Positions 2,236 through 28,158 of a stretch of DNA of 64,000 nucleotides are shown one piece after another. The DNA lies in contig CM097883.1 in NCBI GenBank assembly GCA_044892505.1, positions 302,436,001 through 302,500,000 on the forward strand, given 5' to 3'. The stretch's first letter is position 1. Each line of letters opens with the position of its first letter. Made by a program: the position numbers and the translations under genes. The notes below the pieces were generated by a model that saw only the letters and a program-made list of their open reading frames with translations, did no database searches and had not been told where the DNA came from. The stretch is from Schmidtea nova (Eukaryota).

Positions 2236-3154
2236 ACCAATCCAAAAATCATAAAAACAACACCTAAAACTTAGCTACCGAACTGATCTATCATAGTCAG
2301 TTACATCAACTTTGATACGACAAATATTGTGTAAAATTTTGGAAACGCTGCATCTTGGATTTTAAGAGTAAATTTTGTTGTATTGTATTTGCATTAATTT
2401 TATGATATGTTTTACATGATTCCCATTCATTTCATTTTATTTAATATAATTTATTACTATTAATTGCTCTATTTTTCTTATGCTATTATTTTATGATATG
2501 ATATGATAAATATACTTCCTCAGTAGCTCACGCTGCGAGGGAGTAAGCCGTAAATGTGGGATTTCACCGTTCCACAAGATGGTGAGCAGAGTTTTATTGG
2601 TATTTGTATTTAATTCTATTTTTATCAGAGGTTTAACTTTACGGTGAAGTTGTGCAGGGACAAGGACACGGGTAAAATTAGTAGACAGTATTTAACATTA
2701 GTTAAGTAACATTCGATCAGACAGGAGAGAATAAACTACAGTATCAATGATCATGTCAACTAAATCGATTTCGCATATGCACACGATTTTTTCGAATCCA
2801 CATAGCTGATCGAAATAATGTCCGGACACACCGAGACGATTTCGACATTTCAACGATAGTTTCAATTAAGATATAAATAACAACATAATCAGATCGACAC
2901 TACTGATTGAATAAGTGAAATCGTAACCTGATCGCTGTAAATAGCGCAGGTGATAATATGTAAAATTTTAATAAACATATCCCGATCGCTGTATATAGCG
3001 ACGGTGTTAATTGAATAGCTTAGAAAATATTTTTATTCCTCCTTTTCCTATTTTTTTTTGTTTGTTGATCAACGAGAAGAGCACATTTCATTAGGTCTCA
3101 CCAAAAATTGCGGATTTGTCACAGTAAATTCCATTAGCATTATTATTTTCTCAG

Positions 3155-3655
3155 ATGGAATCAACGATACTGGATGAATTTCTAACAACCCAACGTCATG
3201 TGGCACGGGTCGAAAATCCTCCAATCCGGACGCAACAGAAGAAATTGAAGTCGCTTCCACAGGAACTTCTCAGAACGCTAAATGCGTTGAGGTATAAATG
3301 GAGACGGGAACTAGGAAAGAAATGTCCATTTTCGATTTGGGCCGGTGGATTAGATACCATCATATATCGTGGAGGCCCCGGATGGGAAATTCAGGACAAA
3401 AGAGACCGGGAGACGACAGCTCCATTCATCATAGTGGTGACAGACCGCGAAGGAAATCCAACGACAGTGATCCATTGGGGATATGTCTCACCGCTCAAGT
3501 TGCTTCACTTTGGGTTGATTCCGAACCACCTACCGAAAACGTGCCAAGGGCGTCCCAAACTAAACTGTTCGATGGCTCACATCCGACGAGATCCAGTCAA
3601 TCACGGGTTGCATATTACCCCCGTTCACGGCCTCAAGCGAAGCGTTTTTCACTAA
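3155..3655 (+). CDS. LTR-encoded ORF A, 166 aa, unknown function
   Basis: ATG directly after acceptor-like ttattattttctcAG. GC-richer, coding-like island in an AT-rich LTR. No family recognised. Confidence 0.6.
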   Translation: MESTILDEFLTTQRHVARVENPPIRTQQKKLKSLPQELLRTLNALRYKWRRELGKKCPFSIWAGGLDTIIYRGGPGWEIQDKRDRETTAPFIIVVTDREGNPTTVIHWGYVSPLKLLHFGLIPNHLPKTCQGRPKLNCSMAHIRRDPVNHGLHITPVHGLKRSVFH

Positions 3656-3839
3656 ACGTTATATTCACATTTTTATGAACTAAACTATTTCCATAAATTA
3701 AATGGTATTGATCTGTGTTTGGCTTGTTCTTAGTTAAATTTATTTCTATTTATTTAATCATATAATTTTTACACTCGACGGATAATATTAATCGTTGGTA
3801 ACATAATTGCTGCATCATAAAATGGGTTTGTTATTTAGT

Positions 3840-4430
3840 ATGACGGAAACTAGCCAACAGCGAGAATTGGACAAGGCGTGGAGAATCCGCCGAGCCTTAG
3901 AAAAGGAGCTAAATCAGGAAAAAGCATTACGAGCCAAGGCAGAAGCTCAGATTCAGTATTTACGGACCAGCTGGTTCGCCCCAGCCCGTATGAAAGAGCA
4001 GATGAGTCGGACGGAAAGGGCTCAAAAGACAGCTGACGATTATCGCACCGAATGGGAAGCAACAAAAATTGAGTTGCGCCGATGTCTCCATTCGGTGACG
4101 ACTTCATTTATCGAGTCCGAATTGAAAGCACAAATCCGACCTATCACCTACCAGAAATGGGTAGGAGAACAGAAAGTGGCCTGCTCGGTCAGTACGGACA
4201 CCGATGGGCTCGAGGCAACAACAGTGCAGAGTCGGGTGGAAACCACCCCTGTACCAAACCCCGTCGGAAAAACGAACAAGCGAAAACGAATCGGCTCCAA
4301 ACGCCGTCGCCAAAGAAAGCTGTTCTCTCAGCAGCTACAAGCACAAGTAACCACGATGGCAGAGATGTCGGAAGCCGAGTGGTTATCAGAGATATTCCCT
4401 CCCGAAGGAATTTTCAAAGAATTTCTGTAG
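3840..4430 (+). CDS. LTR-encoded ORF B, 196 aa from first ATG; coiled coil plus Arg/Lys-rich motif
   Basis: ttgttatttAG-T-ATG start. N-terminal heptad-like region and KTNKRKRIGSKRRRQRK (4269-4319). The track start at 3807 is a TTG. Confidence 0.7.
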   Translation: MTETSQQRELDKAWRIRRALEKELNQEKALRAKAEAQIQYLRTSWFAPARMKEQMSRTERAQKTADDYRTEWEATKIELRRCLHSVTTSFIESELKAQIRPITYQKWVGEQKVACSVSTDTDGLEATTVQSRVETTPVPNPVGKTNKRKRIGSKRRRQRKLFSQQLQAQVTTMAEMSEAEWLSEIFPPEGIFKEFL

Positions 4431-4924
4431 CAGATAGAATCATAATATGATGTCAGATTTTGGAGTTAATTAAATCTTTGCTGGTCTTGTTTTTTTGTTG
4501 TTGTTATTTCCTAGGTATTTCTTTCGATTACATAATTCATATAATTAAATTTAAATTACACGTCACACAAACGAAAGGAGTAGCGATAAAGGATTTAAAT
4601 ATTATCAAATTCGTAGTTTCGTTTTGCTTGTTTTTTCGTTTTTATGGTAAATACATAGCCTCACACGCACAAAATAGAACAATAATTGCGTAAGTCCTTC
4701 TACGGCCGCGTGAACCCGTAAACATAAAGGGGGAGTAGTCCTAGCAATAGTGCTCACCTGCCCCTCATTGTTTAGCCACCCTGCGCATCACCAACTTGGT
4801 TATCAAGGGAAATAACCAAGGGCGCTCGAGTGTAACTTACGACTATTTATGCATGATCATGGATGGGAGATCCCTAGCCATCATTAAAATTTTTACCAAC
4901 CCGTCCATGAACCCAGCATAAATT

Positions 4925-26348: not shown

Positions 26349-26460
26349 TGAAGGAAGTGACCATGTAAATAAACTGTATAAAACAATATGAAATAACAAA
26401 TAATCAAAAACAATAAAAATAAAAACTGATTAAATATTCTCTTTATCTGTAATTATAGAA

Positions 26461-27522
26461 ATGGGAAATATAGAAGTAACCTTACAAGAAGTAACCGTAC
26501 ATCAAGACGAAATGATCAGAAATCACATGGAGCAGATTGGGATATGGATTCACGCCTATTATCGAAAACAGGAGGAATTAGAAAGACAAACCCAAGCACT
26601 AAGAGAAGCCGAGAAAACGAATCAAAGAAGTCGAGAAAAAATAGAAGAAGTCTACAAACTGCTAAGACAACAAAACGAATACTACAAAGGGATGATGAAA
26701 GAGCGACGAGAGGATAGGGATAGACAACAGATAAAAACAGACCATAAGATTCAGTCAATCACAGAACAAGCAAGATATTGGAAAAAAGAGGCAAAAGACT
26801 CTTACAAGGAAGCAAGGGAGATAATAGAACGAACAGCGTACAGCGATGATTGGAAACTGTTTAAAGAGATCGATGAATTAAAAGAAGAATTAGGGAAAAA
26901 GATCAGTCAAGAAGCGTCAAATAAAGTATGGAGTAAGAAAAGACAACAATTCATCAGGGAACAAGCCAAGAAAATTAAAGAATTAACTTATCAAGTACAA
27001 AGAATGGGAGAAGATTTAGCCAATCAAGAACAATTAAAAGGTATGCTGACCGGAATGTGGAATCACAAGGAAGAAAACATGAAAAGAGACATAAATGGAT
27101 ACCAAGGAGAGATTACCCAGAAGAAAATAGAATTAAAAAGAACTAAAGAAAGACTGGAAGAAACGAGGCAGAGTTATGAAGAGAACATAACCAATTTGAC
27201 AAAAGAAAACGAAGAACTGAGGAAAAAGCTGACAGAGAAACCAATACCAACAAAAGAAACAAGTATCACAGCAGCAGTGACCGAAATGATAGAGAAGGAG
27301 GAGAGACAGAAAAAATTGACAGAACTAGAAAAACAAATAGAAACCCTAACAGAGCAGGCAAACTATCTGGAATACTTATTAGACGAAGAGATCCAGATAT
27401 CCCACACATACCGAGAGGAAGTGGAAATGTGGAGGAGTACGGTAATATGGATGCCGCTCCCCATAAACCAAGTGGAACCTCAAGACGAAGGTTTTCACGA
27501 ACCTAACGAAACCCTCGTGTAA
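26461..27522 (+). CDS. 353-aa long coiled-coil protein, unknown
   Basis: ctttatctgtaattatAG-aa-ATG start; E/K/Q/R-rich helical composition throughout. Confidence 0.75.
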   Translation: MGNIEVTLQEVTVHQDEMIRNHMEQIGIWIHAYYRKQEELERQTQALREAEKTNQRSREKIEEVYKLLRQQNEYYKGMMKERREDRDRQQIKTDHKIQSITEQARYWKKEAKDSYKEAREIIERTAYSDDWKLFKEIDELKEELGKKISQEASNKVWSKKRQQFIREQAKKIKELTYQVQRMGEDLANQEQLKGMLTGMWNHKEENMKRDINGYQGEITQKKIELKRTKERLEETRQSYEENITNLTKENEELRKKLTEKPIPTKETSITAAVTEMIEKEERQKKLTELEKQIETLTEQANYLEYLLDEEIQISHTYREEVEMWRSTVIWMPLPINQVEPQDEGFHEPNETLV

Positions 27523-27597
27523 ATGAGCGGAAACCAATTGTAAATAAATTATGTAAAATAAAAAGTGTCAAGCCGTATTGACCGATGTATAAAAGAG

Positions 27598-28158
27598 ATG
27601 AGAAAGCTCGCAATAGCAACACTCCTATGGTTAACAACCATCACCCTACAGAGAGAAGATCTACAACTTACCGAAACCCAATTACGAGTTCTACCCGACA
27701 AAACCTACCAAAAAATAGACAATCTAATCGGAGAAATAATTAAAGAAATCAACGAATTCCGACAGAAATACCCCCACAATCAAGATCATCAAATCCAACA
27801 AATCTTCGGTAACCAACAACTGAAATTAAAAGAAACCCGAAAAATCCTGAAAGAAGGTAGAGAACCCATAAAAAGCCTATCCCAAGCTGAAATAGAATAT
27901 CAAGAGAAATGGATCATAGCAATCATCATAATCCTTTCAATCAGCGTAACTATCATTGCAATCACAATCCTGATTGCCTCCTACCGGATAAAAACCCTCA
28001 AACAGAAACAAACCATCGTCAATCAAACATCAAGGCGAGACAACCGAACCCAAAGACGTATGAGAAACCATCTAGATCAAATTCAGACCCACTACGAATT
28101 AGCTACAATCAATGAGAGAACTCAAACCCAACCCAATGCGAGCCGGAGGATCGAATAG
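27598..28158 (+). CDS. 186-aa predicted type I membrane protein
   Basis: First ATG at 27598 gives signal-like MRKLAIATLLWLTTITL, a helical ectodomain, and TM WIIAIIIILSISVTIIAITILIASY with a basic tail. Confidence 0.7.
   Translation: MRKLAIATLLWLTTITLQREDLQLTETQLRVLPDKTYQKIDNLIGEIIKEINEFRQKYPHNQDHQIQQIFGNQQLKLKETRKILKEGREPIKSLSQAEIEYQEKWIIAIIIILSISVTIIAITILIASYRIKTLKQKQTIVNQTSRRDNRTQRRMRNHLDQIQTHYELATINERTQTQPNASRRIE

Follow-up and report, generated by a model that had tools for sequence, protein, structure and literature searches.

How can one mobile element bring eight genes to expression? The question is raised by a 64,000-nucleotide (nt) window of the Schmidtea nova genome (GenBank assembly GCA_044892505.1, contig CM097883.1, positions 302,436,001 to 302,500,000 of the forward strand; coordinates below count from the first letter of the window). 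It contains a long terminal repeat (LTR) element of the Ty3/gypsy type, Burro-like, spanning 29,592 bp on the plus strand (1852–31443). A preliminary description of the window had noted AG dinucleotides placed just before ATG codons, all of which lie inside this element, and had proposed that the genes are resolved by splicing, either from a leader in the LTR or by trans-splicing of a host spliced leader (SL). As the sites are conserved across diverged LTR types and families and are accompanied by AUG-free stretches, the sequence strongly implies that the genes are separated by splicing. It also makes it rather likely that the LTR supplies a single short AUG-free leader, which would be joined by cis-splicing to one of several alternative last exons, every one of them ending at a 3′-end signal of its own. 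The element is of a known kind, and its expression design is, as far as checked, a new variation.

Acceptor-like sites at the gene starts

The element has eight genes: two inside the LTR (A and B), a RING-finger gene, gag-pol, and four at the 3′ end. At six of them an AG ends at 3154, 3838, 5295, 24519, 24968 or 26458, ahead of ATGs at 3155, 3840, 5299, 24523, 24972 and 26461, respectively. All six are where they had been placed, each is a YAG (Y, pyrimidine), and each has 7–9 T in the preceding 15 nt. The earlier picture of T-rich runs on a T-poor strand is accurate for these 15-nt runs and for the internal coding sequence (15–21% T), and holds less well for the LTR, which is less T-poor (28%). 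Among the 555 other ATGs in the element, a YAG ends 0–3 nt upstream in 61, with at least five T in nine and with at least seven T in two, this last cut-off having been chosen after the sites were seen. Against these 2 of 555, the signal stands directly at 6 of 8 gene starts (Fisher p 2e-11 with the T cut-off, 5e-5 by YAG alone), far above chance, which confirms the earlier observation of acceptor-like sites there.

Conservation was followed in sister copies from the 1.25-Gb genome, where the MATH region is present in no fewer than 150 copies that are 94% or more identical. The 3′ part was taken from 20 of these, and the expected 5′ part was sought in the same 20; L041 and L053 lack it and stand outside the 5′ counts, and the gag stretch was measured without L051 and L053. 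The gene denominator is eight because two further open reading frame (ORF) starts are not gene starts. The ORF at 9029 was rejected as a separate gene, there being no stop between gag and pol in 16 of 16 measurable sisters, and the ORF at 23404 was rejected with the polyprotein frame continuing into it in 14 of 18.

At each of 24519, 24968 and 26458 the YAG is retained in 20 of 20 sisters. A second LTR type, present in 8 of the 20, is only about 40–60% identical to type 1 in its middle, and the DNA leading up to its genes A and B bears no relation to that of type 1. All eight type-2 LTRs nevertheless place a YAG 0 nt before the gene A ATG and a TAG 1 nt before the gene B ATG. The design also recurs in other families. 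An IAP-bearing family with a BIR-RING gene (L041/L077), which has no BLAST match to the present element, carries a YAG ahead of seven of seven accessory genes, at a distance of 1–5 nt for six of them and of 17 nt for the seventh. In two 16-kb families, TTTTAG precedes the sole accessory gene by 6 and 3 nt, at five of five loci. The last gene of the present element (ATG at 27598) has a TAG 2–3 nt before its ATG in 11 of 20 sisters. This observation goes beyond the preliminary description, as do the placement of two sites inside the LTR and an acceptor for gag at 7275, described below; with the gag site counted, an acceptor-like YAG lies ahead of seven of the eight genes.

The copies and families also vary in build. 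An element of the IAP family (L041, L077, L078) is bounded by LTRs of 3.55 kb and holds seven accessory genes; its main ORF is cut down to 1037 codons, apparently by internal deletion. The 16-kb families (L021–L040) have LTRs of about 860 bp and the same env-like domain within a 3360-residue polyprotein, with one accessory gene behind an acceptor. In L011–L014 and L016–L019, two very different LTR types (plus sub-types) are joined to the same internal region; the promoter and the last 230 nt are common to the LTR types, and read coverage there is far deeper. This patchwork suggests that the LTR middles, with their two genes, have been swapped among copies.

The putative LTR leader and the approach to gag

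A CCAAT-like sequence and a TATA box (2202–2236, with TATAAATA at 2229) are common to both LTR types. About 140 nt past the TATA lies a GTAA at 2368, our candidate major splice donor (2368–2373), which is aligned in both types and reads AGA/GTAAAT here and GAA/GTAATT in type 2 (the slash marks the predicted cut). Of 26 LTRs examined, 25 have a GTAA(A/T) between TATA+130 and TATA+167, and the T fraction climbs from about 0.3 to 0.6 at the donor-like site. The putative leader exon upstream (2251–2367, its 5′ end estimated from the TATA) is free of ATG. From TATA+22 to the donor-like site there is no ATG in any of the 25 LTRs that bear the site, against 44 expected in sum, although these copies are related, perhaps as five or six lineages, and are not independent. 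Between the donor-like site and the hairpins (2368–2515), the same LTRs hold 137 ATGs against 43 expected, an approximately threefold excess that is possibly a block to translating unspliced RNA. The IAP family, in one copy, has a full donor (TTC/GTAAGT) at TATA+113 and no ATG from +22. An AUG-free leader thus terminates exactly at GTAA in both LTR types and at GTAAGT in the IAP family.

The hairpins form a double structure at 2512–2583 (z −5.2), with covarying pairs retained between LTR types, which makes it a candidate packaging or dimerisation signal; an Rfam search of 1800–8000, the double hairpin included, gave no match. Other splice sites were considered and rejected. A donor at 2582 (ATG/GTGAGC) is confined to LTR type 1 and falls within the hairpin stem, so it was set aside as a general leader donor, and a 47-nt mini-intron from it (2582–2628) has lost its acceptor in many copies. 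Position 2543 carries GC or other letters in most copies, and 4690 carries AT in 7 of 20.

The gag gene has no acceptor at its ATG (7928), and its approach (7261–7927) is of a different form. Here TTGTATTTTAG ends at 7275, 652 nt ahead of the gag ATG, and the interval from this acceptor to the gag ATG (520–652 nt) is devoid of ATGs in all three frames in 16 of 18 copies, while the other two copies have one. Between seven and nine ATGs would be expected per copy, and an equal length upstream holds 8–14. An RNA spliced at 7275 would therefore reach the gag AUG first, whereas in unspliced RNA it is preceded by three genes and by many other AUGs.

Within this approach the gag frame is itself open. 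From 7337 to 7927 it runs for 197 codons before the first ATG, in 18 of 18 copies, and length changes are mostly in frame. An ATT codon at 7346 (A at −3, G at +4) is retained in all 17 scorable copies, and it is possibly a non-AUG start yielding an extended Gag.

These observations bear on whether the AG/ATG arrangement is a mere by-product, left behind by gene capture or reflecting either the context needed for translation or reinitiation along a polycistronic RNA, with no splicing at the sites. A/G-rich contexts before ATGs are indeed common on this strand, and a YAG precedes 61 of the 555 other ATGs. T-rich YAGs are, however, retained where their surroundings have been replaced, and recur in unrelated families; moreover, the 652-nt ATG-free stretch begins at the acceptor at 7275. 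We regard a by-product as very unlikely.

Possible routes of expression: cis-splicing, trans-splicing or internal promoters

The 3′ genes are separated by four spacers (within 24397–27597) of 126, 92, 112 and 75 nt, holding 0, 3, 3 and 2 copies of AATAAA; both the range of 75–126 nt and the presence of AATAAA in three of four were correctly described before. As the strand is rich in A, AATAAA marks 3′ ends poorly; 41 copies occur in 18.6 kb of coding sequence. TGTAAATA, by comparison, occurs in each of the four spacers, five times in 405 nt, versus zero times in 18,585 nt of coding sequence; it presumably fits a 3′-end enhancer of the CFIm type and also a Pumilio site. The putative 3′-end signals lie 34–90 nt ahead of the next acceptor. 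In the IAP family, where the spacers are 93–263 nt long, TGTAAATA is found in five of seven.

Two of the spacers also contain TATA-like words (TGTATATA), as might be expected if transcription of the 3′ genes began at an internal promoter that supplied a short leader, or if each gene had its own promoter. The accessory genes of foamy viruses are a precedent for an internal promoter. The words lie only 10–20 nt before the ATG and therefore too close for a promoter, and the spacers must also hold the 3′ end of the upstream gene, so we attach little probability to promoters of this kind.

In cis-splicing from the LTR leader, the reading that we prefer, transcription would begin from the LTR TATA, a leader of about 115 nt (about 2251–2367) would be joined from the donor at 2368 to the acceptor of one gene, and cleavage at the signal of the next spacer would form the 3′ end of the chosen gene. 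The RNA left unspliced, AUG-loaded after the donor, would keep the hairpins and the primer site and so be the packaged genome. All protein, including Gag-Pol, would come from spliced RNAs, from which the hairpins would be missing, and those for genes after 4942 would also lack the primer site. The primer-binding-site-like sequence (4925–4942) begins 6 nt past the LTR end, is the same in the IAP family, and is one that we take to be tRNA-Pro-like.

This arrangement resembles that of HIV-1, which has a major donor, packaging hairpins just downstream and multiple acceptors. Common to the two would be a single short leader, a set of acceptors placed right in front of accessory ATGs, and hairpins downstream of the donor that unspliced RNA alone would keep. 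Unlike HIV-1, the present element has its candidate donor within the LTR and ahead of the primer site; its Gag-Pol would need splicing, each gene has an apparent 3′ end of its own, and the domain order is of the Ty3/gypsy type. The adenovirus major late unit joins a common leader to a choice of acceptors and poly(A) sites that extend across about 28 kb, and so shares both the logic of leader plus alternative last exon and a similar length, although it belongs to an unrelated DNA virus and only the mechanism resembles.

Several points weigh against cis-splicing from the LTR leader. The donor at 2368, which was selected through alignment, agrees with the general consensus in no more than 6 of 9 positions; an earlier selection rule chose a later GTAA, with ATGs upstream, in four copies. 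The last gene has no YAG here or in 9 of 20 sisters, which have only AAG or GAG. Since the sisters are 95–99% identical, YAG retention among them is, taken alone, little above the spacer background (2–4% change per site). The 3′ genes would need introns of 22–25 kb that bypass stronger proximal acceptors and several cleavage signals.

Nor was a genomic copy of a spliced RNA found in eight pattern searches. On the acceptor side, the TRAF and RING searches gave no match and the gene A search gave eight, all unspliced. The search from the donor at 2582 gave one match, a point change in an unspliced LTR, versus 218 with GT. From the donor at 2368, type 1 gave none and type 2 gave seven (four unspliced variants and three unrelated sequences). 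The IAP-family donor gave none, and a gapped pattern from TATA to gene A, which had no positive control, gave none. This negative is weak, because spliced RNAs, having lost the hairpins, would escape packaging and because minus-strand copies may have been missed: all 16 degenerate-pattern matches were on the forward strand, and coverage of the searches was maybe about half. In four read runs of unknown kind from one study, taken over 22500–31450 and 2150–5600, promoter and spacers were covered as by DNA, which is uninformative on RNA, and none of the joints displayed (15 of 33 and 15 of 32) had GT..AG at the predicted sites.

The long introns would be avoided if the LTR leader were cis-spliced to the 5′ acceptors only and the 3′ array formed an operon, with the host SL capping each cleaved piece. 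A spliced mRNA lacking the primer site would then make Gag-Pol, and cargo related to apoptosis and ubiquitin would be expressed through host trans-splicing. The spacers suit such an operon in their length and in the position of their 3′-end signals, and cleavage there would remove the donor at 2368 from the downstream piece. The 3′ array also has the layout of an SL operon in that same-strand genes lie no more than 300 nt apart, with a 3′-end signal and an acceptor between them. Planarians are described in part of PMC10899757 as trans-splicing. A section of PMC8629364 gives a peak of about 100 bp in the spacing between trans-spliced genes of Macrostomum, and one of PMC12582326 gives spacing under 300 bp for operons of parasitic flatworms. 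In the flatworm operons of these two sources, as in the present array, genes on one strand follow each other at about 100 nt, and a 3′-end signal and an acceptor lie in between; they are, however, made of host genes, whereas the present element has a candidate cis donor upstream on the transcript. The earlier appeal to operon spacing of about 100 nt accordingly agrees with the Macrostomum peak and less well with the IAP family, whose spacers vary from 93 to 263 nt.

Other evidence speaks against an operon at the 3′ end. The same acceptor design is found at LTR gene A, RING and gag, where no short spacer lies ahead and a cis donor lies upstream. In favour of the LTR leader, a portion of PMC4558846 states that the spliced leader loses to a cis donor in the competition for an acceptor, as seen for an LTR in Echinococcus. 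For the present sites, an argument for trans-splicing had been drawn from the reading frame. The flatworm spliced leader ends in AUG, and most of the acceptors were thought to keep such an AUG in frame. Over 16 distinct sites from four families there is no such enrichment: seven are in frame and open, eight are out of frame or stopped, and one is variable. RING copies read AG/TAA ATG in 8 of 19 scorable cases, where an AUG-ended leader would give an AUG followed directly by a stop. We consider the combination of cis-splicing with a host-capped 3′ operon, judged from these sequences, possible but on the unlikely side, and hold the same tentative view of the expression of Gag-Pol and cargo that it would entail. 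Separation by splicing is thus supported; of the original pair of options, the LTR-leader one has gained a conserved candidate donor, and the argument from an AUG-ended leader in frame falls away.

Genes, cargo and kinship of the element

The 5′ LTR (1852–4918, 3067 bp, TG...CA, defined by self-BLAST) carries promoter, leader and two genes, and the 3′ LTR (28377–31443) carries a second copy of genes A and B, with acceptors at 29679 and 30363, so that the starts at 3155 and 3840 reappear at 29680 and 30365. The two LTRs differ at 7 positions over 3067 bp, and CAAA flanks the element on both sides. All genes are on the plus strand. With their acceptor regions, gene A (3140–3655) encodes 166 and gene B (3824–4430) 196 amino acids (aa); neither belongs to a Pfam family, and a metagenome scan gave no match for gene B. 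The RING-finger gene (5281–5760) encodes 153 aa (PF13920, E 1e-11).

The main gene (7928–24396) encodes a polyprotein in the order Gag, Env, protease, reverse transcriptase, RNase H and integrase (the last four PR-RT-RH-IN), ankyrin and transmembrane, and is broken here at 9017 and near 23.26 kb. Gag has CCHC knuckles, and the Pfam matches are PF03732 (E 2e-4, under the cut-off), PF00098, PF00077, PF00078, PF17917, PF17921 and PF00665. An env-like fusion domain (PF24664, E 2e-70, best stretch residues 1559–1899) lies ahead of the protease at 2086. In the 3′ array, a 118-aa coiled-coil-like gene (24505–24879) is followed by a TRAF gene (24954–26348, 458 aa, zf-TRAF and MATH by Pfam), a 353-aa coiled-coil-like gene (26444–27522), and a 186-aa gene with signal-like and transmembrane-like stretches (27598–28158). 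The cargo domains are ankyrin, MATH/TRAF and RING (PF12796, PF22486, PF13920). Bcl-2-like and dUTPase-like parts had no Pfam match in the element, and a SUMO-like part reached only a ubiquitin-like match at E 0.09. Protein searches for N-terminal traces of the leader gave no homologue.

Other features were observed along the window. Two tandem arrays with units of about 29–31 bp lie between the RING gene and the gag acceptor (6231–6770) and vary in length among copies. Upstream of the 3′ LTR (28345–28376) is a GC-rich block, shared with the IAP family, and no ordinary purine tract. Outside the element, 36542–46300 is satellite DNA in which a 177-bp unit is repeated about 55 times, the copies being 94–98% alike, and positions 1–640 resemble, by eye, a decayed integrase fragment from another LTR element.

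The element matches a Burro-like giant of the Ty3/gypsy type, likened by way of published description and not by identity to a named Burro family. This assignment is made because of the env-like domain before PR-RT-RH-IN, the ankyrin repeats, and the RING and TRAF cargo. With Burro/GYPSM1, as set out in the corresponding section of PMC6431247, it shares a length of about 30 kb, multi-kb LTRs, hundreds of copies, tandem repeats, a giant ORF (Gag, Env between gag and protease, PR-RT-RH-IN, ankyrin repeats), and RING and TRAF/MATH accessory genes. It is unlike that element in having MATH/TRAF as a separate downstream gene and in that no BIR was found by Pfam. That section is silent on the expression of accessory ORFs and on genes within the LTR. 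Burro1 carries an IAP gene (Lee et al. 2026, Dev Cell, as cited in part of PMC13465017); the present element shares accessory cargo of an anti-apoptosis type, and differs in having a RING without a BIR.

No literature on spliced or trans-spliced Burro accessory mRNAs was found; Grohme et al. 2018 and Lee et al. 2026, known as cited in parts of PMC13465017, PMC6431247 and PMC11410931, or their supplements may cover it. Burro RNA is present in tissues according to a portion of PMC8532177 that does not mention splicing; in S. mediterranea it rises after piwi knock-down, according to the same source. Planarian genomes abound in Burro elements, one of which reportedly aids stem-cell survival through an accessory gene; the anatomy described here supplies exact predicted junctions that are open to testing. 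If the LTR leader serves all genes, this would be a Ty3/gypsy element with virus-like control that expresses eight genes from one promoter, in which translated and packaged RNAs would be fully separate and from which solo LTRs could express two genes alone. If the spliced leader serves the 3′ array, a mobile element would be tied to host trans-splicing. On either model, new cargo could be added as cassettes of acceptor, ORF and 3′ end.

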